64,000 nucleotides of DNA from a bacterium (GTDB taxonomy: Bacteria > Omnitrophota > Gorgyraeia > Aquiviventales > Aquiviventaceae), in the NCBI GenBank assembly GCA_036396895.1, contig DASWKB010000008.1, positions 1,796 to 65,795 of the forward strand. The letters are read 5' to 3'. Shown piece after piece: positions 1 to 61,722 of this stretch. The notes under the pieces were generated by a model. That model made no database searches and was not told the DNA's origin. It saw nothing but the letters and a program-made list of their open reading frames with translations. Made by a program: the position numbers and the translations under genes. How positions within the stretch are numbered: the stretch's first letter is position 1; every line of letters starts with the position of its first letter.

Positions 1-1042
1 GGAGTTTCGCGATGGCCTGCTCGCAGCGCCGGCGCATCTCCTTCATCTGCGTGGGGTTGTTCAGCGCGTCGACGTCCACCTTTTTGAGGTTCAATTCCTG
101 CACCAGCCGCTCGTGGACGCGCCGTTTGAGGTTGACGATCTCGTCTTCGCGCTGGCCGGATTCTTCCCCGATGTCGAGCGATTCCTCGCCGAGGAGCTGA
201 GTGGTCAGCTCGTCAACCGGGGTCCCCGCCGCGCCCCGGGTGACCTCCAGATGGGCCAGGAACAGCGCCGGACCGTTCACCAGCGTATCCGCGAGCTTCT
301 TGAATCCTTCCGAGATCTTCGACAACCCGTAGAGGGACACGACCGGCGTCCCCTGGTTCACCGCAAACCCCATCGCCCGCCCGTCGGAGGGGAGTTCGGC
401 GATGATTTCGCACGGCATGGCCATGCGCGCGTCCTGCGATCCGACGCCGCCCCGGCTCTGCGCCCGGTTCAGCACCCCCTTCATCAGCTGGGGAGGAAAC
501 AGAAAGCTCTCCAGCAGGTCCATCGCGCGCTTCGTCTGATAGAGCGACACGACGTCGGGCGTCGTGACGAACAAGATGAGATTCGACGCGTCGCAGGCGC
601 TGATCAGATGGTCGCTGAGCACTTTCGTGTCCACGACGACGTAGGCGTATTGGGACTTGAGGAGGTTGAAGAACGGACGGAGCACGTCCCGGGTCAGCTT
701 CTGTGCCTGCCGGGGATCCTGGGTGGCCTGAACGACGGTCACGCCCGATTCGTGCTGGACGGCCACGCTGCCGATGGCGAAGCGGCCCTCGGTCTCGCTC
801 CCGGCCAGCTGCGTTGACACATCCGCCAGCGACTGCTTCAGGGTGAGCCCGAGCATCCGCGCGACGTCCCCGGTGCCCGTGACGTCGAGATCGACCAGGC
901 AGACCGGCGCGTGCGTGCGCTGGGCAAGCGAGACGGCCAGGTTCACCGCGACCACGGTCTTGCCGACGCCGCCTTTGGTATTGAAGACGACGATGCACCG
1001 GCCGTCGATCGTCTCGGACGGCGGTTCAATGGGGTCCACCAT
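1..1042 (-). CDS. ParA/MinD-family ATPase of the CpaE/TadZ type. The 3-prime end runs off the window. The last ~50 codons look like the N-terminal helical region of a CpaF/TadA ATPase.
   Basis: Own reverse-strand translation from the ATG at 1042-1040: MVDPIEPPSETIDGRCIVVFNTKGGVGKTVVAVNLAVSLAQRTHAPVCLVDLDVTGTGDVARMLGL... (KGGVGKT Walker A). The frame stays open to position 1, so it is absent from the ORF track. It ends ...EDEIVNLKRRVHERLVQELNLKKVDVDALNNPTQMKEMRRRCEQAIAKL. Confidence 0.75.
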   Translation of the reverse strand, partial: MVDPIEPPSETIDGRCIVVFNTKGGVGKTVVAVNLAVSLAQRTHAPVCLVDLDVTGTGDVARMLGLTLKQSLADVSTQLAGSETEGRFAIGSVAVQHESGVTVVQATQDPRQAQKLTRDVLRPFFNLLKSQYAYVVVDTKVLSDHLISACDASNLILFVTTPDVVSLYQTKRAMDLLESFLFPPQLMKGVLNRAQSRGGVGSQDARMAMPCEIIAELPSDGRAMGFAVNQGTPVVSLYGLSKISEGFKKLADTLVNGPALFLAHLEVTRGAAGTPVDELTTQLLGEESLDIGEESGQREDEIVNLKRRVHERLVQELNLKKVDVDALNNPTQMKEMRRRCEQAIAKL

Positions 1043-1487: not shown

Positions 1488-3164
1488 TTACGGGCGGAAG
1501 ACGACGGGGACTTCGAGCCAGAGCTCCTGCTCGGGGAGCTCTTCGGGAAACGCCGGATACGGCGCCTGCATCTCCGCGGCCTTGATGCTCTCGATATCCA
1601 GCGCGTCGACGCCGGAGGATTCCGAGAGCATGACCTCCTGGAGGGTGCCGTCGGAGAGGAGGTGGAGCCGGATGCGGACGGTCCCTCCGAGCTTGAGCCC
1701 CTTCTCGCGCTCGGGGTAGTGGATGGACTTGGCCACCCGCTCCTGGATGTTCAGCGCGTACCGCAACCGGGGATTCTGACTGGTCGGGGTGACGCCGGTG
1801 ATCGCGCGCGCCCGTTCCAGCGCCTGCCGGTAGGCCGCTTCCTTGCCCTTGTCCAGCACGAGCTCAGGCGTGACGGCGATGATGAGCTCCCGGTCCTGCG
1901 TCTGGGTCTCGGGCGAACGGAACAGCCGGCCGAGGATCGGCATGCCGCCCAATCCGGGCACCTGGTTCACGCTCTTTTGGTCCGTCAGTTCGAGCAGCCC
2001 CGCGATGACGATCGTTTCCCCCGGAAGCGTGGTCACCTCGGTATTGGCCTCCCGGACCCTGAATCCGGGCACGAGAATCGTCTGCGTCCCGACCGGGACG
2101 CTCAAGCCCACGGACGTGTCCACCGAGGACACCTCCGCCTGCACGGTCGTGGTAATGCGCCAGTCGGTCTTCGGCCGGTGGACGAGCGGCGTCATCTTGA
2201 GCAGGACGCCCGTTTCGCGGAATTCGATGCTCGCGCTCACCGAGGCGGTGTTGGAGCTGACGGAGGTCGCCGAGAGAATCGGCACCTCCACGCCGATGAA
2301 GCTGGACGCCTCTTTCCCGCTCGCCGTCACGAGGCGCGGCTCCGAGAGCACCCGGGCTTTGTTGCTCTGGACGAGGGCGTTGATCGTCGCCGAGGCGCCG
2401 GAGCGGAACAGCGTGCCGATCCGGAACGGTTCGCCCGCCCGCTTGATGAGCGATTCGCCCAGCGTGTCCACCAGCGATTCGGTGGGGATGGGTTCGCCCG
2501 CCCGGGACGCAAACGGCATCTCCGTAAATCCGATCGAATCGGTCCAGTCGACGCCCAGGCGTTTCAAGTCCGTCCGGTTCAGCTCGATCACCTGCACGGA
2601 CAGCTCGACCATGGGCACCGCCTCTTCGGACACCATCGGCGGGCTGAACGTCGCCAGGTTGATCACCAGCGGAAACGCCGCGCTGAGCTGCTCCAGCATC
2701 TCCATGTCGGTCTCGCGCGAGACGCTGCCGATCACGAAGATCTTGTCGCCCCGCAGCTCGGCGGTCACGCCGCTGAGCCCCGAACGGCTCAGGAGGTCGG
2801 CGATCTCATCCCGGATGACCCACGGCCTGGGGTCGACGACTGTGATGTTGAGCTCGTGCTGCCCGATCTTGTCCCAGATGAGCAGATTCGTCACGCCCGG
2901 GGATCTCGCCTGGATCATGATCTGCTCCTGCGAGACGATCGTGACGTCCGCCACGGCGGGATTGCCGATCGCCACGCGCTGGACCTGCCTCGCCGGCACC
3001 GTCCGGACCTGTCCGGGGGACATGAGGATGGAATTGGCGAGGGTCGCGGCGTCCGGCGCCGGCGGCTTGGGCGCCTCGGCGGCGACCACCGCCGCGGGCG
3101 TCCACGCCAGCAGCAGGGCCGCCACGCAAGCGGCGAATCGGCGCAGCACGGCGCGTCGGCTCAT
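1488..3164 (-). CDS. cpaC: Flp/Tad-type secretin (CpaC/RcpA-like) with a C-terminal TonB-C-like domain
   Basis: 558-aa ORF with a signal peptide (MSRRAVLRRFAACVAALLLAWTPAAVVAAEA). Secretin core motifs are present (VPGLGGMPILGRLFRS...RELIIAVTPELV). The C-terminus YPEREKGLKLGGTVRIRLHLLSDGTLQEVMLSESSGVDALDIESIKAAE..PYPAFP matches the TonB_C pattern. ATGA overlap with cpaB at 3161-3164. Confidence 0.85.
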   Translation of the reverse strand: MSRRAVLRRFAACVAALLLAWTPAAVVAAEAPKPPAPDAATLANSILMSPGQVRTVPARQVQRVAIGNPAVADVTIVSQEQIMIQARSPGVTNLLIWDKIGQHELNITVVDPRPWVIRDEIADLLSRSGLSGVTAELRGDKIFVIGSVSRETDMEMLEQLSAAFPLVINLATFSPPMVSEEAVPMVELSVQVIELNRTDLKRLGVDWTDSIGFTEMPFASRAGEPIPTESLVDTLGESLIKRAGEPFRIGTLFRSGASATINALVQSNKARVLSEPRLVTASGKEASSFIGVEVPILSATSVSSNTASVSASIEFRETGVLLKMTPLVHRPKTDWRITTTVQAEVSSVDTSVGLSVPVGTQTILVPGFRVREANTEVTTLPGETIVIAGLLELTDQKSVNQVPGLGGMPILGRLFRSPETQTQDRELIIAVTPELVLDKGKEAAYRQALERARAITGVTPTSQNPRLRYALNIQERVAKSIHYPEREKGLKLGGTVRIRLHLLSDGTLQEVMLSESSGVDALDIESIKAAEMQAPYPAFPEELPEQELWLEVPVVFRP

Positions 3165-4069
3165 TCTTGGACGGACACCACGTCCCGTTCGAGACCTTTG
3201 AAGACTTCGACCGCGTGCGGCGACGCGGCCTGCGGCACGGCCGTGACGTCTTCGCCATACACGGCCTTCATCAGCGAGCTCTTGTCCGCCGGAATCACGG
3301 CCACCCGGCGGCCCTCATCATCCTCGGCGCGGAGGCTCATCTGGACTAGCCCCTGCGTGCGCGCGTACAACAGGAGCGCCGTTTCCTGCGGTGTCAGGGC
3401 CAGCGTCACCGTAAACTTGCTCCGCGGCGCCGCGGGCGCGGCCGCGCCGGCGGCCTGCGCGGCGTCCGGCGCCGCCTGGCCCAGCATCTGGGTATCGACC
3501 GCCAGGACCTCGACGTCCTGGAACAATGACATCGTCACCGGCTCGTTCCCGCGCCCTGCGGCGGCGGCGCCCCGGATATCGAACGTCCAGAGCAGGTCCA
3601 CGCGGTCGCCGGGACGAACGAACCCGCCGACGCCGGTGATCGGATCGGCCTCGATCGTGACGGCGCGTTTGCCGCTCGGAGTCACATCGGACAGTTTTGA
3701 CGCCACGGTCTTCGGCCCCTTCGCGACTTGCTCGGGAGGAACGACCTTATTGCGCTGGACCTGCTCCCCCCGCGCCAGCGGCGCCAGGGTCGCCATGCCG
3801 AGCAGCTGCTCCGGGCGGCTGGTCGCCGTCGGCTGGACGAGCTTTTCGGGCACGGCGAGCAGGGCGAGGTCCTCCGGCGCGAGCACGTGCTGCTCGGGGA
3901 GATTGCGGCTGGCAACGATCACATCCACTGGTTTGCCGTACTGGGCGGCGCGCTCTTCGTACTGCTTCTGCAGGGCGGCGCGCTGCTGTTCGAGCCAGAC
4001 TTTGGCCATGCCGGCCGCGACCAGCGCGAACCCCAGCGCAACCACAATCGGCAGCAGCCGCTTGATCAC
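3161..4069 (-). CDS. cpaB: Flp pilus assembly protein CpaB/RcpC (SAF-domain protein)
   Basis: 302 aa with an N-terminal TM helix (MIKRLLPIVVALGFALVAAGMA). The SAF-like segment reads VDVIVASRNLPEQHVLAPEDL...LARGEQV. GTG start overlaps the upstream stop (GTGA at 4066-4069). Confidence 0.8.
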   Translation of the reverse strand: MIKRLLPIVVALGFALVAAGMAKVWLEQQRAALQKQYEERAAQYGKPVDVIVASRNLPEQHVLAPEDLALLAVPEKLVQPTATSRPEQLLGMATLAPLARGEQVQRNKVVPPEQVAKGPKTVASKLSDVTPSGKRAVTIEADPITGVGGFVRPGDRVDLLWTFDIRGAAAAGRGNEPVTMSLFQDVEVLAVDTQMLGQAAPDAAQAAGAAAPAAPRSKFTVTLALTPQETALLLYARTQGLVQMSLRAEDDEGRRVAVIPADKSSLMKAVYGEDVTAVPQAASPHAVEVFKGLERDVVSVQE

Positions 4070-5064
4070 CTGGCGAGATCCTCCAACCGGTCAGGATAGC
4101 GTTCGACGGCCGCTTGTTCCGATAACCCGCGGATCGCCTCCTGCAGCCGCCGCACCAACAGTTCATTCTGGATCGCGTCCCACACCTGCGAGAGAGGGAT
4201 CTGCTCGCCCTCCTGGCGTTCCACCAGCTGGAAGATGTGGTAGCGGTTGTCGGCGCCCTTCACGTACGAGCTGTACCCGCCGACCTGGTCGATCGCGAAC
4301 ACGGCGGCCTCAAGCGACGGATCCAGCGTGAGGATGCCCGCCGCTTCGGCTTCGGCGGCCGTCTGGGCGATGAGGGGCCGTTCCGCGGCCCGCACCACCC
4401 ATCCCGGCAGGAGCCCGCCGTTGTCGGCGTCCGGACCCAGCGAGCTTTGCTGCGCCAGGGATTCCATCTTGACCGTGTCGCTCAAGAGCTGCGCCAGCGC
4501 CTGGCGGGCCTCGTCCTGCGTCGCGAGCATCACTTGCCGGACCCGCATCCGTTCGGGCGAGCGGAATCCCGCCTTGAACTGCTCATAATACGCCTCGACC
4601 TCGCTCGGTTCAACGCTGAGCCGCTCCTGCTGCCACCTGAGCCACTCCTGCGAGAGGAACCCGCGCCGCACGAACGACCACCGGCGCTGCGCCTCGAGCG
4701 TCTGATCCAGGCCGCGCCCCGCGGCGTCTTGGCTCAGGAGTTCCGCGTTGATGAGCTCCTCCAGCACCGCCTGCAGATCCTCCGGCCGCAACGGCGTCCA
4801 GGGCTGGCCCATGCCCTCGATGATGGCCCGCAGCTCCTGCACGCGCAGCTCGACGTCCTGCTTCGAGAGCGTCACGCCGTTGACGCGCGCCACGACGTCC
4901 TCCGGCGCCACCGGCACCATCGGCGCGCGCGTCGACGGCGCGGCGGATCCCGCCACGGGGCTGCGCTCAGTGTCCCCGCCGCCGAGCAGCGAGCTGATCT
5001 GGTCGCAGCCGCCGAGCGCGACCGCGAGCGCCGCCGCGGCCGCCGCCTGCCACGACCGCCTCAT
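4066..5064 (-). CDS. Lipoprotein with a SurA-N-like and parvulin (PpiC) type peptidyl-prolyl isomerase architecture
   Basis: I use the internal start MRRSWQAAAAAALAVALGGC (lipobox LGGC) at 5064, which overlaps the cpaF stop (ATGA at 5061-5064). The body reads ...RVRQVMLATQDEARQALAQL...GGLLPGWV..., parvulin-like. The 420-aa track ORF carries an Arg-rich upstream extension that I reject. Confidence 0.65.
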   Translation of the reverse strand: MRRSWQAAAAAALAVALGGCDQISSLLGGGDTERSPVAGSAAPSTRAPMVPVAPEDVVARVNGVTLSKQDVELRVQELRAIIEGMGQPWTPLRPEDLQAVLEELINAELLSQDAAGRGLDQTLEAQRRWSFVRRGFLSQEWLRWQQERLSVEPSEVEAYYEQFKAGFRSPERMRVRQVMLATQDEARQALAQLLSDTVKMESLAQQSSLGPDADNGGLLPGWVVRAAERPLIAQTAAEAEAAGILTLDPSLEAAVFAIDQVGGYSSYVKGADNRYHIFQLVERQEGEQIPLSQVWDAIQNELLVRRLQEAIRGLSEQAAVERYPDRLEDLAR

Positions 5065-6353
5065 CCGGTCACCCAACCCGGCGGCTGCACGTTGTGCAGC
5101 CGGAACTTGGACAGGACCCGCGGGCGCGCGCCCGTATAGCGGTGCGTTCCGTGCATCTCTCCGTCGGCCGAATAGTCTCCTGTCTCGAACACGAAAAGTT
5201 CTTCCAATTCGAATCCCTCCTGCGAGACGCCGTGCACCTGCGTGATGGTCTCCACGCGGCGGCTGCCGTCGACAAACCGCCCCACGTGAACCACGAGGTC
5301 CACGGCGCTGGCGATCTGCATCCGGCACGCCGCCGGCGGCAAGTCCAGTCCGCTCATGAGCATCATGGTCTCCAGGCGCTCGAGCGCCGCGCGGGCGCTG
5401 TTGGCGTGGAGCACCGTGATGAAGCCGTCATGTCCCGTGTGCATCGCCTGGACGACGTCCAGCGCTTCCCCGCCCCGGGCCTCCCCGAGGATGATCCGGT
5501 CGGGTCGCATCCGGAGCGCGTTTTTCACGAGCGCGCGCAGCGGCACGTTGCCCCGGCTGTCGGCGTTGCCTTCCCGGGCCACCATGCGGATCCAGTGCTC
5601 CCGCCCTGGCAGCTCCAGCTCCGGCACGTTCTCGATGGTGATGATCCGGTTGTCCTTCGGCATGAACGTCGAGAGGATGGTCACCAGGGTGGTCTTGCCG
5701 GTGGAGGTCCCGCCGGAAATGATGATGTTCACGCGCGCCCGGACGCACGATTGGAGGAACTCCGCCGCCTGCGCGCTGAGCACGCCGAGCTGGACGAACT
5801 CCTCCATCGTCCAGTCGCGGACCTTCTTGCGGATGGTCACGACCGGACCGTTGAGCACGATGGGGGGGATGGCCACGTTGATGCGGGAGCCGTCGGGCAG
5901 CGTCGCGTCGCACAAGGGATCCGCCTCGTTCACGCCGCGCCCGATCGGGGCCAGCATCCGCTCGATCACGTGCAGGAGGTGCTGGGTGTCCCGGAACGAC
6001 GCGTCGATCCGCTCCATCCGCCCATCCCGCTCGACGTAGATGTCCTTGGGGCCGTTGACCATAATTTCGCTCAGGGTGGGATCGGCGAGGAGCGGATCGA
6101 GGGGGCCCAGGCCGACCACCTCGTCCATGACTTCGCGGATGAGCTGGTCTGTCGCATCGCCGGCGAGATCGATGCGCTGGCGGAGATCGTCGGGCAGGCC
6201 TTGCAGCTCGCGCCGGAGGACCTCCTCCGCGGCCTGGCGCTGCGCCCCGGGCCGCCCCGGATCGAGCTCCTCGTTCGCCTCGACGAAGTCGGCCAGGCGC
6301 ATCTTCAGCCTGGTCTTCACGCGGTCGTACGGATTCTCGATGTCTCGATTCAT
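5061..6353 (-). CDS. cpaF: CpaF/TadA-type (VirB11-like) pilus assembly ATPase
   Basis: Start at MNRDIENPYDRVKTRLKMRL (ATG at 6353). Walker A GGTSTGKTT, Asp/His boxes (IILGEARGGEALDVVQAMHTGHDG) and VNGPKDIYVERDG are present. Confidence 0.9.
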   Translation of the reverse strand: MNRDIENPYDRVKTRLKMRLADFVEANEELDPGRPGAQRQAAEEVLRRELQGLPDDLRQRIDLAGDATDQLIREVMDEVVGLGPLDPLLADPTLSEIMVNGPKDIYVERDGRMERIDASFRDTQHLLHVIERMLAPIGRGVNEADPLCDATLPDGSRINVAIPPIVLNGPVVTIRKKVRDWTMEEFVQLGVLSAQAAEFLQSCVRARVNIIISGGTSTGKTTLVTILSTFMPKDNRIITIENVPELELPGREHWIRMVAREGNADSRGNVPLRALVKNALRMRPDRIILGEARGGEALDVVQAMHTGHDGFITVLHANSARAALERLETMMLMSGLDLPPAACRMQIASAVDLVVHVGRFVDGSRRVETITQVHGVSQEGFELEELFVFETGDYSADGEMHGTHRYTGARPRVLSKFRLHNVQPPGWVTG

Positions 6354-6455
6354 AGGCGCGGAGAGCTCAGGCGCGCGGTCGCGACCGGCTCGCATACCAG
6401 TATAGCATGGACGCGCGCGGCACCCAGCGCGTTTCCTCGTTCCAGATAATGAAAC

Positions 6456-6485
6456 GAGCAAAGGCACCATGCGGTGCCTTTGCTC
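6456..6485 (-). terminator. Perfect 13-bp stem / 4-nt loop hairpin downstream of tRNA-Glu; candidate intrinsic terminator
   Basis: gagcaaaggcacc-atgc-ggtgcctttgctc. On the minus strand it is followed by GTTTCATTATCT, which is only moderately T-rich. Confidence 0.4.
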
Positions 6486-6622
6486 CTGGTCCAACGGCAT
6501 GGGAACGAGGACGGGATACGTGTGCACTGCGCGCTCTCCGATCGGCCTGGGGTACGCTCACCCGTCTCCCCTTATATGCGCTCCGGAACTTCGCGTCGCA
6601 TGGTTTCAGCGCCGAGCAACCC

Positions 6623-7156: not shown

Positions 7157-8293
7157 TTACTTGCTCGGAGGCTGGTCCTTGCCGATGAGCATGTGGAACT
7201 CGGCGGGGCTCTTGACCCGGCTCATCGCGGTCTCGTACGAGATGACCTTGCGCTCGAACAGCTGCTTGATGCTGGCGTCCATCGTGCACATGCCGTACTG
7301 GGCGCCGGTCTGCAGGGCGGTCATGATCTGCTCGGTCGCGTGATCGCGGACGATGTTGCGCACCGCGGACGTCCCGATCATGATTTCATAGGCTAGCACC
7401 CGGCCCGGCCGGTCGGACCGCGGCAGGAGCTGCTGCGACACGACGCCCTGGAGGCAGTCCGCGAGCTGGATCTGGATCTGCGACTGCTGGTTCGGCGGGA
7501 ACACGTCGATGACGCGGTCAACCGTCTGGGCGGCGTCGGGCGTGTGCAGCGTCGCCATCACGAGGTGTCCGGTCTCGGCGGCCGTGATGGCCGTGGCGAT
7601 GGTCTCCAGGTCCCGCATTTCCCCGATGGCGATGACGTCGGGGTCCTGCCGGAGCGCGCGCACGAGCGCGGTGGAGAACGATTTCGTGTCAGCGTACACC
7701 TCGCGCTGCTTGATGATGGAGCGGCGGTTCTGGTGGATGAACTCGATCGGATCTTCGATGATCACGATCACCCTCCGCCGCTCCTGGTTGATGAGGTTCA
7801 CCATCGCGGCCATGGTCGTCGACTTGCCGACGCCGGTCGGGCCCGTGATGAGCAAAAGCCCGTTCGGCTTGCGCGTGAGCTCGGCGATCACCGGCGGCAG
7901 CCCCAGCTCCGCGATGGTCGGGATCCGAGACGGGATCAGCCGAAACGCCGCTTCGACGCTGCCCCGCTGGAAATGGACGTTGACCCGGAACCGTCCCAGT
8001 TCGTGCACGTGCACCGAAATGTCGAGCTCCAGATCCCGCTCGAACTGCGCCTTCTGGCGGTCCGTCAGAAAGCTGTAGACCAGCCGCTTCGTGTCCTCGC
8101 GCGTCAGCGGCGCAAGCTCCGTGGGCGACAATTCGCCGTCGATCCGCAGCATGGGCGGGCTGCTCTCGGTCAGGTGGATATCCGAGGCGCGCCGGGCGAA
8201 CGCGAGCTGAAACAGCTCGCGCATGTGCCCGATGGCCATGCCCGGCACGATCGGCGTCTCCGGCGCCGGCGGGGGGGATTCAACCTCTGGCAT
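7157..8293 (-). CDS. pilT: Type IV pilus retraction ATPase PilT
   Basis: 378 aa with ASDIHL, Walker A GPTGVGKSTT, DPIEF, GEMRDLETI and ATLHT motifs. The start could instead be the internal Met at 8239. Confidence 0.9.
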   Translation of the reverse strand: MPEVESPPPAPETPIVPGMAIGHMRELFQLAFARRASDIHLTESSPPMLRIDGELSPTELAPLTREDTKRLVYSFLTDRQKAQFERDLELDISVHVHELGRFRVNVHFQRGSVEAAFRLIPSRIPTIAELGLPPVIAELTRKPNGLLLITGPTGVGKSTTMAAMVNLINQERRRVIVIIEDPIEFIHQNRRSIIKQREVYADTKSFSTALVRALRQDPDVIAIGEMRDLETIATAITAAETGHLVMATLHTPDAAQTVDRVIDVFPPNQQSQIQIQLADCLQGVVSQQLLPRSDRPGRVLAYEIMIGTSAVRNIVRDHATEQIMTALQTGAQYGMCTMDASIKQLFERKVISYETAMSRVKSPAEFHMLIGKDQPPSK

Positions 8294-9374
8294 CGCGTCC
8301 CGATCGGATCTCCTGCAGCGCCAGCTGGAGCTCTTCCGGGCTGTCGGCGAACCGCATCGCCTCCTCGACGGCGATCTCTCCGCGCTTGCAGCGCTGGTAC
8401 AGGGCCTGCGTGAACGTCTGCATCCCGTCCATCGCGCCGTCCTGGATCGCCAACGGCACCGCCCCGGTGTCGCCCGTGCGCACGAGCTCGCGCACCCGCG
8501 GAGTCGCCGCGAGCAGTTCGCAGACGGGCAGCCGTCCCCCGCCGTCGCGCCTCGGCACCAGGCGCAGCGACACGATGCCCCGGAGCACGACGGCGAGCCG
8601 GATCCGGATGAGCCCGTGCTGATGCGGAGGAAAGAAGCCGATGACGCGCTCGATCGTCGTCACGACGTTCGTCGTGTGCAGGCACGTGAGCACGAGCTGG
8701 CCGGATTCCGCGGCGAACAGCGCGGATTCCATCGTCTCCAGATCCCGGACGTCGCTCAGGAACAGGACATCCGGGCTCTGCCTGAGGACGTGCTTCAGCC
8801 CCTCGGTGAACGTCAGCGTGTCGGTGCCGACTTCCCGCTGGTTGATCACCGCCTGGATTTCCTCGAACTGGAACTCGACCGGATCCTCGAGCGTCACGAT
8901 GTGCACCGGATGAGCGTGATTGAGCGTGTTGAGCATGGCGGCGACGGTGGTGGATTTTCCCGACCCGGTCGCGCCCGTCACGAGGATCAGCCCCTGGCGC
9001 GCCTCCAGGAGCGTGCGCAGCGGCTCGGCGGGCAGGTGCAGCTCCTCCAGCGTTGCGAGGGCCCGGGGCACGCGGCGGATCACCATCGCCATCGTCCCCC
9101 GCTGCCACAGGACGTTGGCGCGGAACCGCCCCGACGGAGGGCGCTCGAACGCGAAATTGATCTCGCGCGACTGCTCAAACTGCCGCCGGCGCGCCTTGCC
9201 CATGAGTTCCGACGCCGCGCGCGCGATGGCCTCCTCGTCCGCGCGGGTCTCGCCGATGGGCACCAGCTTGCCGTTCACGCGCATGAACGGATGCGCCCCG
9301 GCCTTGAGGATTAGGTCGCTGCCTTCATGCTCGACCATCACGGTGAGCAGCTGCTCGAGTTCGATCGCGCTCAT
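8280..9374 (-). CDS. Second PilT/PilU-family ATPase
   Basis: Start at MSAIELEQLLTVMVEHEGSDLILKAG (ATG at 9374). Walker A GATGSGKSTT, then EDPVEF, LSDVRDLETM and TCLHT. Confidence 0.85.
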   Translation of the reverse strand: MSAIELEQLLTVMVEHEGSDLILKAGAHPFMRVNGKLVPIGETRADEEAIARAASELMGKARRRQFEQSREINFAFERPPSGRFRANVLWQRGTMAMVIRRVPRALATLEELHLPAEPLRTLLEARQGLILVTGATGSGKSTTVAAMLNTLNHAHPVHIVTLEDPVEFQFEEIQAVINQREVGTDTLTFTEGLKHVLRQSPDVLFLSDVRDLETMESALFAAESGQLVLTCLHTTNVVTTIERVIGFFPPHQHGLIRIRLAVVLRGIVSLRLVPRRDGGGRLPVCELLAATPRVRELVRTGDTGAVPLAIQDGAMDGMQTFTQALYQRCKRGEIAVEEAMRFADSPEELQLALQEIRSGRDARG

Positions 9375-9440
9375 GGCATCTCCCGCGCCGCCAGCGACGC
9401 GTCCGGCGATGCGCCGTCTATGCAACAACGCGTAAGTTTA

Positions 9441-12600: not shown

Positions 12601-13068
12601 GCGAAAGGAATGCCACAGCAGCAGCGCGACCCCGATCGTGATGGCCGAGTCTGCGATGTTGAACACGGGCCAAACGCGCAGGTCGATGAAATCGACGACG
12701 TAGCCGAAGCGGACCCGGTCGATCAAGTTGCCCGCGGCGCCTCCCAGGAGCAATCCCGACGCGGCCAGGACGGCCATCGGCTGCCGGCGCCGGCTGAGCA
12801 GCATCCAAGCGATCCAGAGCATCACCGTCGCCGAGAGCGCGATGAAGATGCCCAGCTGGCCGCGCAGCAGGCCGAACGCGGCCCCGGTGTTCTGGACGTA
12901 GGTGAGATGCAGGACGGAGGGAATCACCGGGAGGCTGTCCCCCGGCGCGAACCGGCCGAGGATCAACAGCTTGACGAGTTGGTCCGCGACGAGCACCGCA
13001 GCCCCGACCGCCCACGGCCACGCCAGCCGCGGAACCGCCGGCGCGGGAGGGTCCTCCTGAGCGGTCAT
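12496..13068 (-). CDS. lspA: Lipoprotein signal peptidase II with a repeat-encoded low-complexity C-terminal tail
   Basis: 190 aa with LTYVQNTGAAFG, GGAAGNLIDR and FNIADSAITIG. The tail ADKRPATGDQQPATRDQRPATRDQRPEKRVTSDR is encoded by the heptamer array at 12496-12600. Confidence 0.9.
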   Translation of the reverse strand: MTAQEDPPAPAVPRLAWPWAVGAAVLVADQLVKLLILGRFAPGDSLPVIPSVLHLTYVQNTGAAFGLLRGQLGIFIALSATVMLWIAWMLLSRRRQPMAVLAASGLLLGGAAGNLIDRVRFGYVVDFIDLRVWPVFNIADSAITIGVALLLWHSFRADKRPATGDQQPATRDQRPATRDQRPEKRVTSDR

Positions 13069-13096
13069 CTCGGGCGCTCCGCGGGAGCCCGGACGG

Positions 13097-13480
13097 TCAG
13101 GGCTTGCCCTTCTGCTCCTTGACCCGCTGGCACTCGATGCACATGAGCGCGTACGGCACGGCCTTCAGCCGGCTCATGGTGATCGCCTTGCCGCACGCCT
13201 GGCACACCCCGTAGCTCCCGTCATCGATCCGCTTGAGCGCGTCATCGATCTGGTAGAGCAGTTCGCGTTCGTTGGAGGCGACGTTCATCGACAGTTCCCG
13301 CTCGTGCGTGTCGGTCGCCATGTCCGCCATGTGCACCGTGTAGCCCGACAGGTCGCCTGAGGCGTCCCGCGGGGTCTTCAGGGCGTCCTGGGCCAGCGAG
13401 CGCAGCTCGCCGACAATCCGCTCGCGCTCCGTAATGAGCAGTTGTTTGAAGTGCTTGAGCTGGTCCTTCGTAATCGCCAT
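13097..13480 (-). CDS. DksA/TraR-family C4 zinc-finger protein
   Basis: Start at MAITKDQLKHFKQLL (ATG at 13480). Zinc finger CQACGKAITMSRLKAVPYALMCIECQ. The 300-aa track ORF is an artefactual extension into ileS. Confidence 0.8.
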   Translation of the reverse strand: MAITKDQLKHFKQLLITERERIVGELRSLAQDALKTPRDASGDLSGYTVHMADMATDTHERELSMNVASNERELLYQIDDALKRIDDGSYGVCQACGKAITMSRLKAVPYALMCIECQRVKEQKGKP

Positions 13481-13494
13481 GAGTCCGTCGTTGG

Positions 13495-16332
13495 TTACTC
13501 GGTTGCGTGAGTGCCTGGCAGCGTCGGCATGCCCGCCACGGCCTGGACGCACCGCGCGCACAGCTGCGGATGGTCCGCATGCGCTCCGACGCTGTCCAGG
13601 TGCTTCCAGCACCGCCCGCACTTGGCGCCCGGCGCGCGGCTGATCCGGATGCCGGCCAATCCCGGCACGCCGGTCTCGTCCGCGTCCTGCGGCCCCGCGG
13701 CGGCCACGGCGACCTCCGACACCACGAACGCCTCCGCGAGCGTGTCGCGATGCGCGTGCAGGTCCCGCAGGAGCTCCGGGTCGCGCGCGCTGAGCGTCAC
13801 GCGGGCCTCCAGCGGGCTGCCGATCACCCGCTTGAGCCGTTCGGCTTCGAGCGCCTTCATCACGGCGCCGCGCACCGCGAAGAACGTGTCCCAGCGCGCG
13901 GCCGCCGCCGCATCCAGCGCCCCGCCCTCCGGAGCCGTCCAGGCGCCGAGCCCGGCGAAGGGTTCGCTCACCCACTGCGCCTCGCGCATGAACTGCCACA
14001 CCTCATCCGTCGTCACGACGAGGACGGGCGCCAGGGTCGCCACAAGCGCGCGCAGTATAGCATAGAGCGCGGTTTGCGCACAGCGCCGTTTCGCCGAGTC
14101 CGCAGGCTCCGTGTACAGGCGGTCCTTCAGGGCGTCCAGGTAGCACGACGAGAGGTCCTGTACGCAGAACCGGTAGACGGCCCGAATCGCGTCGTGAAAC
14201 TGGTACGCCTCGTAGGCGCGCGTCACGTCCTCGCACAGGGCAGCGGTCCGGTGGAGAGCCCACCGGTCCAGCTCGCCGAGCTGCCGCGCCGGCACCGCCG
14301 CGCGGGGATGAAAATCGAACAGGTTCGCCAGCAAATACCGGAACGTGTTGCGGATCTTCCGGTACGATTCGGCTGTCTGCTCGAGAATCTCGTCCGAAAT
14401 CCGCACGTCTTCGCGGTAATCCGACGAGGCGACCCACAGCCGCAGGATGTCGGCGCCGTAGCGTGCCGTCACCTCCTGCGGCGCGATGACATTGCCCAGG
14501 CTCTTGGACATCTTGCGCCCGTCTCCATCCACGACAAACCCGTGCGTGAGCACCTGACGGTACGGCGGCGCGCCCTTGAGCGCCGCGGCCGTGATCAGCG
14601 AGACTTGGAACCACCCCCGGTGCTGATCCGACCCTTCAAGATACAGATCCGCCGGCCAGCGCAGGCCCGGCCACGTCTCAGGCCGCAGCACCGCGGCATG
14701 GCTGACCCCGGAATCGAACCACACGTCCAGGATATCCGGATCCTTCCTGAGCTCCCTTCCGCCGCAGTCCGGGCACGCCAGCCCCGGCGCGAGCTGCGCG
14801 GGCGTCTCGGTGAACCAGGCCTCGAGGCCGCGCTCGGCGAGCGCGGCCTCGATCCGCTCGATGGCCGCGACGTCGAGCAGCGGGCGTTCGCAGGCGGCGC
14901 AGTGCAGCACCGGAATCGGGCTGCCCCAGTACCGCTGCCGGGACAGGCACCAGTCGGGACGGGACTGCAGCATGCCCGCGATGCGTCCGAGCCCCGCGTC
15001 CGGCACCCAGCGCACGCCGCGGACGGCCTCGAGCAGCATCGCGCGGAACGGGTCGGTCACGCGCAGAAACCACTGCGGCGTCGCGCGGAAAATGACCGGC
15101 TGTTTGCACCGCCAGCAGTGGGGATAGGAGTGCTCCAGGGGCTCCTCCCGTAGCAGGAGGCCCCGGGCCGTCAGATCCCGGATGATGTCGGGCGTCGCGT
15201 CCCATACCGTCCGGCCCGCCCACGCCGGCACCTCCTGCGTGAACCGCCCGCGCTCGTCCACCGGCGAGAGCACCTCGAGCCCCGCCGAGCGGCCGATGAG
15301 GAAGTCTTCATGCCCGTGTCCGGGCGCGATGTGGACCACGCCCGTGCCCTCGGTCAGCGAGACCCCGGCATCGAACACGGCGCGCGACCCGCGCGCCGCC
15401 AGCGGCGCCCGGCAGACCATGCCGTCCAGGGCGCGCCCGTCGAACTCGGCGACCCGCGCGGCGCCGGGCGCCCCGAGCTTGGCCAGGAACGCCTCGGCGA
15501 CGTCGGAGGCGACCACCAGCTGGCTCGTCCAGCGCGCGTCCGTGAACACCGCATACCGGGCGTCCGGATGGAAGCACAGCGCCACGTTCGCCGGCAGCGT
15601 CCAGGGCGTCGTCGTCCAGGCCACCACCGCCGTCGGGCGGCCGAACGCGTCCCGCGCGTCTGCCGGCAGTCCCGCCGGCGCGCGCTCGACCGGGAACGCC
15701 ACGTAGATCGACGCGTCGCGGCGGTCCTCGTACTCGACCTCCGCCTCCGCCAGCGCGGTTTCGCACGTCGCGCACCAGTACACCGGCTTCATGTCGCGCA
15801 CGATGTATCCCCTGCGCACGAGCTCCTTGAACGACCGGAGCACCGTCATCCCGTACTCGGCCGACATCGTGAGGTACGGGCGCGCCCAGTCCCCGACCAC
15901 GCCAAGCCGCTTGAACTGCTCCCGCTGGATGCCGACGTATCGCTCCGCGTACGCGCGCGCGAGGCCGCGGAACTCATGCTGGGCGATGTCGCGCTTGGTG
16001 AGCTTCCGCTCCTTGAAGAGCTGGTGCTCGATCGGCATCCCATGGCAGTCCCAGCCCGGCACATACGGCGCGTCGTAGCCCCGGAGCACCTTGTAGCGCA
16101 CGATGACGTCCTTGAGGATCTTATTCAGGGCGTGCCCGATATGGATATCCCCGTTGGCGTACGGCGGGCCGTCATGCAGCACGAACGTCTCGGCGCCGGC
16201 GCGCGCGCGGCGCATCAGTCCGTACAGGTCCTCGGAGTCCCATCGGGCCAGGAACGCCGGCTCGCGCTCCGGAAGATTGGCCTTCATCGGAAACGTCGTC
16301 TTCGGAAGATTCAACGTGGTTTTATAGTCCAT
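13495..16332 (-). CDS. ileS: Isoleucyl-tRNA synthetase
   Basis: 945 aa with the HIGH motif (PYANGDIHIGH), KMSKS, and a C-terminal zinc-binding CxxC pair. Confidence 0.95.
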   Translation of the reverse strand: MDYKTTLNLPKTTFPMKANLPEREPAFLARWDSEDLYGLMRRARAGAETFVLHDGPPYANGDIHIGHALNKILKDVIVRYKVLRGYDAPYVPGWDCHGMPIEHQLFKERKLTKRDIAQHEFRGLARAYAERYVGIQREQFKRLGVVGDWARPYLTMSAEYGMTVLRSFKELVRRGYIVRDMKPVYWCATCETALAEAEVEYEDRRDASIYVAFPVERAPAGLPADARDAFGRPTAVVAWTTTPWTLPANVALCFHPDARYAVFTDARWTSQLVVASDVAEAFLAKLGAPGAARVAEFDGRALDGMVCRAPLAARGSRAVFDAGVSLTEGTGVVHIAPGHGHEDFLIGRSAGLEVLSPVDERGRFTQEVPAWAGRTVWDATPDIIRDLTARGLLLREEPLEHSYPHCWRCKQPVIFRATPQWFLRVTDPFRAMLLEAVRGVRWVPDAGLGRIAGMLQSRPDWCLSRQRYWGSPIPVLHCAACERPLLDVAAIERIEAALAERGLEAWFTETPAQLAPGLACPDCGGRELRKDPDILDVWFDSGVSHAAVLRPETWPGLRWPADLYLEGSDQHRGWFQVSLITAAALKGAPPYRQVLTHGFVVDGDGRKMSKSLGNVIAPQEVTARYGADILRLWVASSDYREDVRISDEILEQTAESYRKIRNTFRYLLANLFDFHPRAAVPARQLGELDRWALHRTAALCEDVTRAYEAYQFHDAIRAVYRFCVQDLSSCYLDALKDRLYTEPADSAKRRCAQTALYAILRALVATLAPVLVVTTDEVWQFMREAQWVSEPFAGLGAWTAPEGGALDAAAAARWDTFFAVRGAVMKALEAERLKRVIGSPLEARVTLSARDPELLRDLHAHRDTLAEAFVVSEVAVAAAGPQDADETGVPGLAGIRISRAPGAKCGRCWKHLDSVGAHADHPQLCARCVQAVAGMPTLPGTHATE

Positions 16333-16450
16333 GACAATTATGCGGCTGAGACCGGCGAGCGATCATGCCGGCGCGGGAGAGCAGACGTGCATGTGTGCAT
16401 TCGTGCAGAGCTTCGATTGTTGATGCCACTGCATCCCCGAGAAGCCGAAA

Positions 16451-16545
16451 GTGGAAGCTGGATGTCGTCGTGGTGTATCGGCGTTGCCATGTTACTTGTT
16501 GCTTCTTGCTGGTTGCTTGTTGCTGGTCGCTAGCCCTTTGTCGCT
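16451..16545. repeat. Short mosaic element (GCTGGAW word plus a CTTGTTG/CTGGTTG array) just 3-prime of yggT
   Basis: gtggaagctggatg at 16451-16464. gttacttgttgcttcttgctggttgcttgttgctggtcgctag at 16491-16533. Confidence 0.7.
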
Positions 16546-58465: not shown

Positions 58466-60307
58466 CTACCAGCCCTCGTACTCCACGGCGAGCCGGAAGC
58501 GCACCTGCGTCGCTCCCGCGCCCTCGGGAAACGGCGGGAACGGCCCGGCGGCCGCCAACGCGGCGTGCGCCGCCGCGACGTACGCGTCGCCGCCGGAACT
58601 GGTGATCTCCTCGACCGACTCGACGGTCCCGTCGTGGCGCAGGACGAAGGCCACCGTCACCGATCCGGGCTCCAGCTTCGCCTCCTGGAACGCGCTGATG
58701 AGGTGGGCCCGCAGCCGCTGCCGGACATCCTGCTGGTAGCCCGCCGGGATCGGATCCCGCAGCACGATGCCGGGCGCGTCCCCCGGCTGGCCCTCCCCGG
58801 GGCCCGCGGCGGCGGTGACGGCCGTCCCGTCGGGACGGGTGATCGTCGGCGTGAGGAACACCACCAGCTCGCGCTTGGACTTGGTGTCCGTCAGGCCGCG
58901 GAACGGGGCCCCCAGAATGGGGATATCGCCCAGCCCCGGCACCCGGCGGTCCGTGCGCTGGTTCGTCACGTCGATGAGGCCGCCGATGACGAGCGTCACG
59001 CCGCTGTTCACCAGCACCGTCGTCTCCGCTTCGGTCGTCGTCACGATCGGCACGCGGCTGTCCGCGAACTCCTCGATGGTGGCCGTGCTCACCTCCGGAC
59101 GGATCTTGAGCTGGACCTGCCGCTCTCCCCGGATCTCGGGCGTCACGAAGAGCTTCGTCCCGACGTCCACGTACTGAATCTCCGGCGCCGTGACGACGCT
59201 ACCCGAGGCCGGCACGGTGGTCGTCACGGTGACGGCGGCCTGCCTCGTGCCGATGAGAATGCGCGCTTCCTGGCGGTTGGACACCATGATCCGGGGATTG
59301 GAGAGCGTTTCGGTCCGGCCCAGCACCTTGAGCGCCTCGAGCACGATCCGGGTGTTCCCGCCCGGCGCGGAGAGCAGGCTGAGCGCGCCGCCCGTCGCCG
59401 TCCCGCCCACCACGTCTCCGAGGACGCGGAAGTTCGACCGCGCGCGCGCGTCGATGCCGCCCAGGACCCGCTCCCAGTCGATGCCGAGACTCAAGTCATC
59501 GCTGAGGAGCACGGAGATGATCTTCGCCTCGATGAGCACCTGGCCGTCCGGGATGTCGAACGCCCGGACGATCTGGTCCAGGCGTTCCAGGCGCTCCGGC
59601 ATGTCCCTGACGATGATGCGGTTGGTGCGCGCGTCGACCGTCGCCGTGCCGACCGGCGTGAGCAGCTCGACGAACTTTTCCCCGATCTTCTCCGCGTCGG
59701 CGTACTGGAGCCGATAGACGCGCGACTCCGTCGGCCGGTCGAGGTTCTCGATCAGCCGGCGCATGTCCGCCAGGTGGCCCACGGTGTCCCGCAGCACGAG
59801 GGTGTTCGTCGTCTCGTCCGCGACGATGCGCCCGACGGCCGACTTCACCTGGTTGAGGATCGCCACCACCTGCACCACGCTGGCGTGCTTGAGCGGCAGC
59901 GCGACCTGCCTGGTCGGCTCCTGGAACCGCTGGCCGTAGTTGAGCTCGTAATCGCGCGCCGTCATCACGCTGATCATGTCGCCCCGGATGTCATAGGCCA
60001 GATCGTTCGCGTCGACGATAAGCTCGAACGCGTCCCAGACGTCCACGTCCTTGGCGAAAATGGTCACCCGGCCGCTGACGTTCTGCCCGGCCACGAAGTT
60101 CAGCTCGCCCTTCTGCGAGAGGAGCTTCAGGACGTCGATGATATCGACGCCCTTCAGGTCGAGCGAGATGAGCTCGCCCGTCTTGAACGAGCCGTCGTCC
60201 GCATGCTGCAACTGCGCCCGCGCGCCCGGCGCGCACAGGAGTGCCGCGGCGGCCCACGCCGCCGCCAGCCGTCCCGGTTCCCACCCGTGCCGCCGCCTGC
60301 GTCTCAT
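58466..60307 (-). CDS. PilQ/MshL/GspD-type secretin with a C-terminal TonB-C-like domain
   Basis: Start at MRRRRRHGWEPGRLAAAWAAAALLCAPGARA (ATG at 60307). N0/N1-like domains are present (VDIIDVLKLLSQKGELNFV..., two secretin_N-like repeats). The secretin core contains VPGLGDIPILGAPFRG..RELVVFLTPTI. The C-terminus is GSVTVAFVLRHDGTVESVEEITSSGGDAYVAAAHAALAAAGPFPPFP. Confidence 0.85.
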   Translation of the reverse strand: MRRRRRHGWEPGRLAAAWAAAALLCAPGARAQLQHADDGSFKTGELISLDLKGVDIIDVLKLLSQKGELNFVAGQNVSGRVTIFAKDVDVWDAFELIVDANDLAYDIRGDMISVMTARDYELNYGQRFQEPTRQVALPLKHASVVQVVAILNQVKSAVGRIVADETTNTLVLRDTVGHLADMRRLIENLDRPTESRVYRLQYADAEKIGEKFVELLTPVGTATVDARTNRIIVRDMPERLERLDQIVRAFDIPDGQVLIEAKIISVLLSDDLSLGIDWERVLGGIDARARSNFRVLGDVVGGTATGGALSLLSAPGGNTRIVLEALKVLGRTETLSNPRIMVSNRQEARILIGTRQAAVTVTTTVPASGSVVTAPEIQYVDVGTKLFVTPEIRGERQVQLKIRPEVSTATIEEFADSRVPIVTTTEAETTVLVNSGVTLVIGGLIDVTNQRTDRRVPGLGDIPILGAPFRGLTDTKSKRELVVFLTPTITRPDGTAVTAAAGPGEGQPGDAPGIVLRDPIPAGYQQDVRQRLRAHLISAFQEAKLEPGSVTVAFVLRHDGTVESVEEITSSGGDAYVAAAHAALAAAGPFPPFPEGAGATQVRFRLAVEYEGW

Positions 60308-60311: not shown

Positions 60312-60920
60312 TTAGAGCACCAACTCCAGGGTTTGACCGTGCAGATCCAGCACCGCGCGGTTCTCCAGGATGTCGCGCAGGACCGCCTCGCCCGCCACGG
60401 TCTGCCCGACGGTGACAAAATACGTCTTCTGCGTCTGGCTGTCGCCGATGATCGCCTGCGGCGGATCCCCTGAGACGATCCCCATCAGGGTGAGCCGCGA
60501 CGCCAGCGCCTGCGACGCGCCCGGCGCTGCGCCGCTGCCCTGGGCCGTTTCGCGCGCCGGGGCCGCGAACACCGCCCGCGGCGCTTCGGCCTCCAGCAAC
60601 GGCAGCGCGTCCAGGTCCGGCAGCGCCGCGCCGGAATCGCGCGCCGGCTGCAGCGCGGGAAGGACCGCCGCGCCGTCCAGCGGGTCCCGCGCCAGCTCGA
60701 CGCCGAGCACGACGACTTCCGCGGCGACCGCCGCGGCGAGCGCGCCGAGCAGGACACGCCCCCACGGCCACGACGGACGCGCGGCCCCGCCCCCCGCCAG
60801 CACGGCCGACATCCCACCCATCGCGGGCGGCTCGGCGCGCGGCGCCTTCGGCTTCGGCCGGATCAGGCGCAGGAGCCGCTCTTCAGGCGTAGGCGTCAGC
60901 GTGGGTCCAGCGGGATTCAT
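60312..60920 (-). CDS. GspC/PilP/MshK-like secretin-interacting protein
   Basis: 202 aa with a TM helix (VLLGALAAAVAAEVVVLGV). The C-terminal HR-type domain is LTLMGIVSGDPPQAIIGDSQTQKTYFVTVGQTVAGEAVLRDILENRAVLDLHGQTLEL. The start is uncertain because the ORF overlaps the upstream gene by 38 nt. Confidence 0.65.
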   Translation of the reverse strand: MNPAGPTLTPTPEERLLRLIRPKPKAPRAEPPAMGGMSAVLAGGGAARPSWPWGRVLLGALAAAVAAEVVVLGVELARDPLDGAAVLPALQPARDSGAALPDLDALPLLEAEAPRAVFAAPARETAQGSGAAPGASQALASRLTLMGIVSGDPPQAIIGDSQTQKTYFVTVGQTVAGEAVLRDILENRAVLDLHGQTLELVL

Positions 60921-61722
60921 CCCGGGTCAGCTCCTGGATCATCGGCGCGTCGACGTGCCGCCGCTCGTGCATGACCAGCGCCTCCAGCGCGCTGTGGCAC
61001 AACAGCGCGATGCGGCGCGGGTACCCCTGCGTCGCGTGATAGATGGCCCGGACCGCGTCGGCCCCGAAGAGCGCCTCGGGATCCCGGCACCCCGCAGAGC
61101 GGAGCCGGAACCGGATCAGCGAGCCGGTCTCCTCCTCATCGAGCGGATTGATGATGTACTTGAATGCCGCCCGGTCGAGGAAGTTGCGGATGCGCGCCAG
61201 GCGCGCCAGCAGCTCCATCTGGGCGAAGATGACCACCTGCAGCAGCTTGTACTCGTTCGTCTCGAAATTGAGCAGCATCCGGAGATTTTCCAGCATGTCC
61301 ACCGACAGCTTCTGCCCCTCGTCGATCACGAGGATGGTGGTCGCGCCGTCCTGCACGCCGCGCTGGAACAGCTGGTGCTCGATCGCTTCGCGGCAATCCA
61401 GGACGGACTTGAACGAGGGCGCAAGACCGAGGAGGCGCGCCACGTGCGCGAGGAACTGAAACTCCGATCCGAAGGAGGGGTCGAGCACCATGTGCAGCGC
61501 GAAGTCTTCCTCACGCCCGAGGGAGCTGAAGAGCGTCCGCGCCAGCGTCGTCTTGCCGGTGCCGACATCGCCGAGGATCAGCGCCAGCCCGCGCCGGAGC
61601 CGCACCGCGATCTCGATGCGGTTCAGCGCCGCCAGATGCGAGGTCGAGCCGAAAAAGAACGCGGGGTCGGGACTGGTCGAAAACGGCTCCTTGGCGAGGC
61701 CGAGCGCGGCATAGTAGCTCAT
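60883..61722 (-). CDS. ExeA/GspA/MshM-family AAA ATPase
   Basis: 279 aa. LGLAKEPFSTSPDPAFFF, Walker A GDVGTGKTTL and Walker B LVIDEGQ. Confidence 0.8.
   Translation of the reverse strand: MSYYAALGLAKEPFSTSPDPAFFFGSTSHLAALNRIEIAVRLRRGLALILGDVGTGKTTLARTLFSSLGREEDFALHMVLDPSFGSEFQFLAHVARLLGLAPSFKSVLDCREAIEHQLFQRGVQDGATTILVIDEGQKLSVDMLENLRMLLNFETNEYKLLQVVIFAQMELLARLARIRNFLDRAAFKYIINPLDEEETGSLIRFRLRSAGCRDPEALFGADAVRAIYHATQGYPRRIALLCHSALEALVMHERRHVDAPMIQELTRDESRWTHADAYA

Follow-up and report, generated by a model that had tools for sequence, protein, structure and literature searches.

Two unrelated secretin classes in one bacterial lineage carry the same kind of module at their C-terminal ends, one otherwise familiar as the working end of the Ton and Tol force transducers. 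Both genes are in the window, which is the whole 64-kb stretch of DNA analysed here (64,000 nucleotides of contig DASWKB010000008.1; 69.6% G+C, with almost every gene on the minus strand). What is such a module doing on an outer-membrane channel? The two proteins represent a genuine and conserved variant, specific to the lineage, of two known secretin classes. As for function, the domain may passively tether the channel in the periplasm or help it to assemble, in place of the S-domain or the pilotin tail, a reading to which we give a probability of about one half.

Two secretins with a TonB/TolA-type C-terminus

The first secretin is encoded by open reading frame (ORF) A:

1488..3164, minus strand: ORF A, a CpaC/RcpA-type secretin of a tight adherence (Tad) system with a C-terminal TonB_C domain; 558 residues plus stop
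2838..3038, minus strand: T2SS-T3SS_pil_N domain, residues 43-109 (Pfam, E 7.9e-18)
1857..2378, minus strand: secretin core, residues 263-436 (Pfam, E 2.7e-37)
1773..1856, minus strand: spacer, residues 437-464, conserved and mostly helical (family consensus ALEQALAVAEV)
1491..1772, minus strand: TonB_C-fold domain, residues 465-558 (Pfam, NCBIfam, profile matches, AlphaFold2 and Foldseek)

The protein starts with a Sec-type signal peptide (approximately residues 1-29). Its pil_N domain and secretin core, its RcpC/CpaB, CpaE and CpaF-like neighbours, and the presence of a C-terminal functional ‘tail’ region are all as in the RcpA/CpaC and TadD system of Pseudomonas aeruginosa. Unlike RcpA with its short, unstructured, TadD-binding tail, however, ORF A ends in a conserved helix followed by a folded domain of ~95 residues. 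The helix is possibly S-domain-like; modelled in isolation, the spacer that contains it has a low predicted local distance difference test score (pLDDT). The elements of the terminal domain are, in order, a helix, a short helix with a YP motif, strand 1, strand 2, a helix, the motif P[YF]PxFP and the terminal strand LWLEVPVVF.

The second secretin is ORF B:

58466..60307, minus strand: ORF B, a GspD/PilQ-class secretin with a C-terminal TonB_2/TolA-like domain; 613 residues from the ATG at 60307
59963..60103, minus strand: STN/N0 domain (Pfam, 20.3 bits, under the cut-off of 28.4)
59543..59899, minus strand: two Secretin_N (N1/N2-type) domains (Pfam, E 5.5e-25, two stretches; limits approximate, best stretch 59729-59899)
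58838..59332, minus strand: secretin core (Pfam, E 1.3e-40)
58745..58837, minus strand: Pro/Ala/Gly-rich linker after a conserved TPxIxxPDG motif, poorly conserved, pLDDT <50
58469..58744, minus strand: TonB_2/TolA-III-like domain (Pfam, NCBIfam, profile matches, AlphaFold2 and Foldseek)

Here the terminal domain consists of a long helix, strand 1, strand 2, a helix, a PFPPFP motif and the terminal strand VRFRLAVEY. Pfam residue numbers for this protein are counted from a longer, 650-residue ORF with a TTG start at 60418 (Secretin 363-527, TonB_2 559-639, TonB_C 585-647). The TTG start is unlikely, because the database protein P0121, 100% identical to ORF B and named ‘TonB family protein’ at NCBI, begins at the ATG.

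A sequence-only reading of the window had noticed a TonB-like pattern at both C-termini, and the peptides that it quoted are present in the translations of ORF A and ORF B. Profile scans of both proteins for Secretin, Secretin_N and TonB_C give a significant TonB-type match in each, above the Pfam and NCBIfam cut-offs. In ORF A, Pfam TonB_C (PF03544) covers residues 481-557 and profile positions 3-78 of 79 (E 6e-11, 43.1 bits against a cut-off of 24.6), and NCBIfam TIGR01352 (tonB_Cterm) scores 42.9 bits against 27.1. In ORF B the best model is TonB_2 (PF13103; E 5.6e-9, 36.4 bits against 22), with TonB_C at E 2.3e-6 (28.4 bits) and TIGR01352 at 30.5 bits, both again above the same cut-offs; NF033768, for the AgmX/PglI tail, is a weak match to ORF B (E 0.078). 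The Secretin model (PF00263, cut-off 27.5) gives 128.4 bits for ORF A and 139.2 for ORF B. The limits first proposed for domain A, 1488-1760, correspond to residues 469-558 plus the stop codon, and are correct except at the N-terminal side, where the folded domain begins earlier, at residue 465 (nucleotide 1772).

For comparison with solved structures, alignments were made of the C-terminal 122 residues of A plus 26 diverse homologues (A1) and of the C-terminal 128 residues of B plus 22 (A2). The A1 profile matches the Helicobacter pylori TonB C-terminal domain (6sly/5lw8, E 4e-8) and also HasB, Escherichia coli TonB and TolA; the A2 profile matches 6sly (E 2e-4). Monomer models of the same two segments from AlphaFold2 take the TonB/TolA fold, with mean pLDDT values of 85 (A) and 83 (B), cores >90, and the same order of elements in both: helix or helices, strand, strand, helix, terminal strand. 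When the models are compared with the PDB by Foldseek, the top 24 matches of A and the top 11 of B are all to the TonB C-terminal domain, TolA domain III, HasB or FusB, and significant matches are to these proteins only (for example 9dc4_T, with a root-mean-square deviation of 1.5 Å across 78 columns). The TonB/TolA-type identity of the domains is confirmed by sequence and by fold; among the four, H. pylori TonB is the best match, then HasB and TolA.

The two domains are not of quite the same type. In domain A the YP motif is present and TonB_C is the best-scoring model, whereas domain B opens with a long helix, has no YP and gets its best score from TonB_2, the TolA-like type. Both families share the DG turn, the SSG motif and the terminal strand, with SSG mostly replaced by SPxG among family-B relatives. 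Alignment of A1 with A2 by hhalign gives 96% probability, E 3e-9 and 26% identity, and in both families P[YF]PPFP precedes the last strand; this shared motif is also TolA-like. Mean cross-family scores with hidden Markov models (HMMs) are 20.6 and 24.6 bits, versus 24.0 for E. coli TonB, and 36.8 and 24.7 for H. pylori TonB. The idea of sister domains, or of a recent transfer between the two secretins, was rejected, since cross-family scores are no higher than those to ordinary TonB. Domains A and B are homologous, with no evidence in their sequences of a recent shared origin.

The secretins themselves do belong to different subfamilies, as had been proposed, A being CpaC/RcpA with pil_N and B being of the GspD/PilQ class with N0/STN and Secretin_N. 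For ORF B, the label ‘PilQ/MshL-type’ first given is uncertain beyond the GspD/PilQ class, because its scores are under the equivalog cut-offs (PilQ TIGR02515, 226.9 against 284.35; MshL TIGR02519, 153.2 against 250.2; GspD TIGR02517, 217.3 against 351.35) and the operons of its relatives contain GspE/F/G/H/J/K-like genes. ORF B is the secretin of a machine of either the type II secretion system (T2SS) or the type IVa pilus kind, its scores lying below all three cut-offs.

Conservation and distribution of the architecture

Conservation was examined among the best 120 database matches listed per secretin, 121 family-A and 120 family-B sequences altogether. With family-specific HMMs the C-terminal domain is found in 121/121 and 120/120 of these best homologues, which form one length class each, and it lies at the extreme C-terminus (median of 0 residues beyond it in the 241 sequences). 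Precomputed Pfam annotation overlooks the domain in many family-B members in which the family HMM finds it. Column conservation in the TonB-type domains (0.65-0.76) is on a par with that in the secretin cores (0.56-0.90), and the terminal strand is among the best-conserved parts: L112, W113, L114, P117 and F120 in A1, and R118, F119, A122, V123 and Y125 in A2, are invariant or at least 90% conserved. That a secretin gene was wrongly joined to a downstream TonB-like gene, in annotation or assembly, has next to no chance of being the explanation, because in all 121 and 120 sequences, from many independent assemblies, secretin and domain are read from one uninterrupted ORF, the junction shows uniform conservation and coding-like codon bias (G+C at third codon positions 0.91-0.94), and no TonB N-terminal region is found between the secretin and TonB_C parts.

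The extension is also lineage-specific, as the sequence-only reading had argued. Organism names on the homologues of both secretins are Candidatus Omnitrophica or Omnitrophota in every named case. In addition, genomes (one per GTDB species, partially sampled) were scanned with the family-A alignment and a single peptide pattern, EP[KTR]LVTxSGK, which returned 80 loci. Ten of these match ORF A through residue 557 or 558, TonB_C included; seven are labelled Omnitrophota and three ‘uncultured Planctomycetales’. The other 70 (L017-L086) are mainly from Verrucomicrobiota and Planctomycetota, with a few labelled Nitrospinota, Geoalkalibacter, Holosporaceae, Kofleriaceae or Alcaligenaceae, and they match only to about residue 436-460, which is the end of the secretin core (one, on a truncated contig, to 392). 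Complete ORFs among them continue into unrelated tails of 15-177 residues (one assembly-gapped ORF to 510 residues), and the tails of these 70 non-Omnitrophota CpaC loci contain no TonB_C (HMM scores of at most 2.4 bits) and no Pfam family.

The three ‘uncultured Planctomycetales bacterium’ metagenome-assembled genomes (L007, L015 and L016) have the Omnitrophota-type Tad operon with PilT 65-76% identical, and therefore belong to the same lineage; their label is probably coarse or wrong. The Verrucomicrobiota and Planctomycetota tails have conserved motifs of their own, such as DDWGLHxPDHLGFP and LPGxxVTEPTxxxFF...YRSTVWP. To judge from these sequences, lineage-specific tails seem to be a general feature of CpaC homologues.

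Which other proteins carry the domain? A HMMER search with A1 of 1.84 billion representatives clustered at 50% identity gave 33,651 matches at E <= 1e-3, 51 of them at E <= 1e-30, and a Pfam scan was run on the 87 long proteins among the best 150 matches. TonB_C was found in 86/87 and Secretin in 44/87, of which 37 also have pil_N; smaller numbers have the TolC-like OEP family (3/87) or Peptidase_M56 (4/87). The remaining long representatives mostly have TonB-type families only (TonB_C, TonB_2, TolA), some as tandem repeats, with at least five TonB_C copies in P0241 (an Omnitrophica metagenome-assembled genome) and eight in P0244 (candidate division KSB1). P0271 (L087 7853-10243) combines three TonB_C with a TolC-like OEP domain and adjoins an ORF of >2,294 residues. 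P0268 and P0272 are CpaC-type secretins with two TonB_C and Lys/Glu-rich spacers of >100 residues that resemble TolA domain II; P0268 also has a TPR-like end. Two tandem units of helix plus TonB_C are present in four family-A members (P0026, P0049, P0052 and P0081).

Operon context and possible functions of the domain

The genes around the two secretins are the following. Those of the Tad operon are at one end of the window:

2..1042, minus strand: CpaE/ParA-like, downstream of secretin A, cut by the window edge (Pfam)
3161..4069, minus strand: RcpC/CpaB, directly upstream of secretin A (Pfam; synteny in related loci)
4066..5064, minus strand: SurA/PrsA-like parvulin peptidyl-prolyl isomerase (PPIase) with the lipoprotein signal ALGGC|DQ, inside the Tad operon; start taken as the ATG at 5064
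5061..6527, minus strand: CpaF-like T2SSE ATPase of the Tad operon (Pfam)
7157-9428, minus strand: two PilT-like ATPase genes side by side, directly upstream of the Tad operon, kept in relatives

Those of the secretin-B operon are at the other end:

60312..60920, minus strand: GspC/PilP-like (T2SSC), upstream of secretin B (Pfam)
60883..61722, minus strand: AAA_22 ATPase, with the AAA_22 family of domains as its sole Pfam match
61719-62021, minus strand: small MerR-family regulator between the gspM/pilO-like and AAA_22 genes, kept in relatives (L005 7307-7552, L006 8145-8462)
62103-62630, minus strand: PilO/GspM-like (Pfam)
62627-64000, minus strand: PilM-PilN/GspL-like, cut by the window edge (Pfam)

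The Tad order (two PilT-like ATPases, CpaF-like, SurA/PrsA-like PPIase, RcpC/CpaB, secretin::TonB_C, CpaE(ParA)) is kept on related contigs, followed there by DUF192 and many ORFs of 50-130 residues; the relatives' gene downstream of secretin A is a CpaE/ParA-T2SSE fusion of 682-762 residues (L001 11720-14008; L003 11663-13711). An exact-sequence look-up of the two window proteins gave no record, and homologues on long contigs served for these comparisons. The paired PilT-like ATPases suggest retraction by one of the two pilus-type machines. As in the GspD/PilQ class generally, ORF B has N0/STN, Secretin_N and core, GspC/PilP-, GspL/PilMN- and GspM/PilO-like neighbours and, in its relatives, GspE(MshEN)-, GspF-, GspG-, GspH-, GspJ- and GspK-like genes upstream. 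Unlike members of the class with an S-domain and pilotin (GspS/AspS) or with AMIN, it has a disordered linker and a TolA-III/TonB_2-like domain. By our own reading of its sequence, the AAA_22 ATPase resembles GspA/ExeA/MshM; the Pfam scan finds no peptidoglycan-binding domain on it.

Genes for a motor or a pilotin, which the sequence-only reading had suggested looking for nearby, did not turn up. Pfam searches of the scanned genes of the window and of six related 20-kb neighbourhoods give no ExbB, ExbD, TolQ or TolR, and no Pal, TPR-pilotin, AMIN, LysM, OmpA-type or PG_binding domain. Likewise, there is no TPR/TadD family within 10 kb on either side in the related loci L001-L004. The ORF A operon differs in this from the RcpA/TadD system: it has the lipoprotein PPIase gene, and no TadD/TPR gene was found nearby.

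How might the domain act? Each protein would be a Sec-exported outer-membrane secretin made of a core, a spacer (a conserved helix in A, a disordered linker of ~30 residues in B) and a complete TonB/TolA-type C-terminal domain. As in solved secretins, the C-termini should be on the periplasmic side, outside the barrel, from which it follows that the assembled channel would bear a crown of ~12-15 such domains just beneath the outer membrane, the number of subunits being borrowed from solved secretins. The tail of RcpA, its pilotin-binding element, meets the pilotin at the same place, the periplasmic outside of the barrel (PMC10499894). In the position and role of the S-domain or pilotin tail, the domain would be a passive binding module, and not an energy transducer, that holds the channel to a component of the outer periplasm. 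Binding could take place by addition of a partner peptide as an extra beta-strand, as TonB and TolA C-terminal domains do beside their last strand (PMC12204202). Additionally or alternatively, the domain might associate with peptidoglycan, as is proposed for the TonB C-terminal domain in a passage of PMC9022066 that cites Kaserer 2008; the organism makes peptidoglycan, since a dcw cluster of cell-wall and division genes sits mid-window along with housekeeping genes. The domain would serve to assemble or stabilise the Tad and T2SS/type IV pilus-type machines or to anchor them under load. The periplasmic location, the passive tethering and the kind of ligand are what we infer.

Several results favour a tether or assembly module. 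The terminal strand, which TonB and TolA use for beta-augmentation, is among the best-conserved parts, which supports binding. Copy number and spacer length vary, and the domain is also found on TolC-like and multi-copy proteins, as is typical of a generic binding or tethering module. Replacement of a pilotin or anchor is supported by the lack of any AMIN, OmpA, LysM, PG_binding or TPR/TadD-like gene in either operon, both in the window and in relatives. The assumption with which the sequence-only reading began, that secretins normally end in an S-domain, is true of some only: in RcpA the tail is unstructured and its last four residues bind TadD, a TPR lipoprotein, and the tail of PilQ is eight residues long (PMC10499894). 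Targeting, assembly and anchoring differ from system to system (S-domain plus pilotin, AMIN, ExeAB), and if the proposal is true, the secretins described here use a third solution to anchoring, with TonB_C employed from the outer-membrane side.

Other considerations weigh against this proposal. Peptidoglycan binding by the TonB C-terminal domain itself is, in the literature cited above, only a proposal. Monomer models of the isolated domains are uninformative on docking onto the barrel. The data are those of the loci, and TonB-dependent transporters, TolB/Pal, Lpp/OmpA and distant pilotin genes lie beyond their scope. Finally, the lineage scan used one pattern for family A only, so that fusions elsewhere could be missed.

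The best-surviving alternative, which we nevertheless consider rather unlikely, is that the domain is an assembly factor only, capturing a peptide of a dedicated outer-membrane lipoprotein or of BAM/Lol so that the secretin is targeted and inserted, whether by docking a pilotin or by self-piloting. S-domains and the RcpA tail do bind pilotins at the C-terminus, and no TadD/PilF-like TPR gene is found in the operon neighbourhoods. The SurA/PrsA-like lipoprotein is a candidate partner: its gene, the second one upstream of secretin A, is conserved in the window and in 11/11 related loci that have a match (L001, L003, L007 and L009-L016; 12 loci examined), and the product could act on the secretin or the pilins as a dedicated foldase or as a pilotin-like factor. 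However, its lipobox (xGC) is followed in all cases by Asp or Glu at position +2, a signal for inner-membrane retention in E. coli lipoproteins, although the rule may differ in an Omnitrophota-type lineage. Furthermore, the T2SS-like operon of secretin B has no lipoprotein gene of this kind, either in the window or in relatives, and the tandem copies, long spacers, TolC-like proteins and carriers of 5-8 copies fit a generic module better than a 1:1 lock. We also considered whether the proteins could be liposecretins, which pilot themselves, and rejected the idea: there is no conserved lipobox, with loose matches in only 13/121 family-A and 7/120 family-B sequences.

It is distinctly improbable that the domain instead staples subunits together, by binding the spacer or terminal strand of a neighbour or by dimerising, and so cross-links the ring as the GspD S-domain does. 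S-domains of T2SS secretins touch neighbouring subunits, and the spacer helix of family A is conserved. TonB C-terminal domains are moreover able to dimerise (PMC9022066). The linker of family B, on the other hand, is poorly conserved and predicted to be disordered, and spacers of >100 residues in some relatives are unfit for a fixed staple. In our view pilotin docking and stapling are both narrower versions of the tether idea.

Coupling to a Ton/Tol motor or its clients, in which the domain would be pulled by TonB or TolA or compete with them, is very unlikely. It might for instance bind TolB/Pal or a TonB box, or form a heterodimer with TonB, so that gating would depend on the proton-motive force or the machine would be placed at the site of division. 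In fold and motifs these are indeed force-transducer C-terminal domains, and some relatives have the Lys/Glu-rich spacers that resemble TolA domain II. Coupling to an ExbBD-like motor, one of the options raised by the sequence-only reading, nonetheless finds no support, because both proteins lack a membrane anchor and no exbBD or tolQR genes are nearby. Neither has the N-terminal anchor of TonB or TolA, a signal peptide and then secretin domains being found in its place, and both fall far short of the cut-off for the full TolA model TIGR02794 (23.6 bits for A and 17.1 for B, against 59.45). In TonB and TolA the domain belongs to an inner-membrane anchored protein, and here it is on an outer-membrane channel. 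The secretins have no SHLS transmembrane helix and no Pro-rich, periplasm-spanning domain II, so that the domain has the opposite polarity and lacks a direct route to ExbBD or TolQR.

This reversal also permits a broader, and doubtful, conjecture. Omnitrophota may have turned TonB/TolA-type domains round and placed them on outer-membrane channels, namely secretins of two classes and TolC-like proteins, and on multi-copy periplasmic proteins, forming a lineage-specific envelope-tethering system of reversed polarity that connects to the wall or to inner-membrane platform proteins. Such a system would replace pilotins, and perhaps Lpp/OmpA/Pal-type tethers, in ultra-small, probably predatory cells.

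Precedents, annotation and other genes of the window

Reuse of TonB_C has precedents. Fusions of TonB_C with M56 peptidases are of a known kind, and the domain is also known to be reused in the TonB-like gliding-motility proteins of Myxococcus. BlaR1/M56-TonB_C and Myxococcus GltG/GltJ (= PglI/AgmX) show TonB_C to be a mobile periplasmic interaction module, although those proteins are anchored in the inner membrane, unlike outer-membrane secretin channels. Accessories that anchor to peptidoglycan (ExeA/GspA, the AMIN domain of PilQ, the LysM protein TsaP) offer a possible functional analogy, that of fixing or assembling a secretin at the cell wall, but have no sequence or fold relationship to the secretin TonB_C. 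The secretin parts are ordinary, TonB_C is ordinary and promiscuous, and nothing so far suggests a new principle.

Has the architecture been described before? The sequence-only reading knew of no description, and in the literature searched we found no paper describing a secretin-TonB_C fusion; in the databases, however, PF00263 together with PF03544 is precomputed in hundreds of clusters, under automatic names such as ‘TonB family protein’, ‘TonB C-terminal domain-containing protein’ and ‘energy transducer TonB’. An Omnitrophota genomics paper with an analysis of RcpA and Tad uses the words ‘secretin’ and ‘TonB’ nowhere in its text, and a word search of a 2025 paper on TolA/TonB evolution finds no mention of secretins. 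In a preprint of 2026, ‘TonB C-terminal domain’ proteins appear as TonB content next to genes for pili and secretion, and these proteins are probably the secretins described here. With such names, secretins may inflate TonB counts in genome surveys and lead to misleading inferences about nutrient uptake. The annotation can be corrected, in that ‘TonB family protein’ entries of this kind are secretins. The leading candidates for attachment to hosts in Omnitrophota are Tad and type IV pilus-type machines (PMC10066038), so that the module gives a concrete handle on this process and generates hypotheses about the assembly and anchoring of secretins.

Two other observations concern genes away from the secretins. 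Among the few plus-strand genes, 46283-47542 encodes a 419-residue protein with an N-terminal N_methyl (type IV pilin methylation) motif; it is large for a pilin and distant from both secretin operons. In the relative L006, the SMC gene downstream of the secretin-B orthologue (12934-18216) contains an intein (Intein_splicing plus LAGLIDADG_3), and the SMC gene of the window (53525-57142) is without one.

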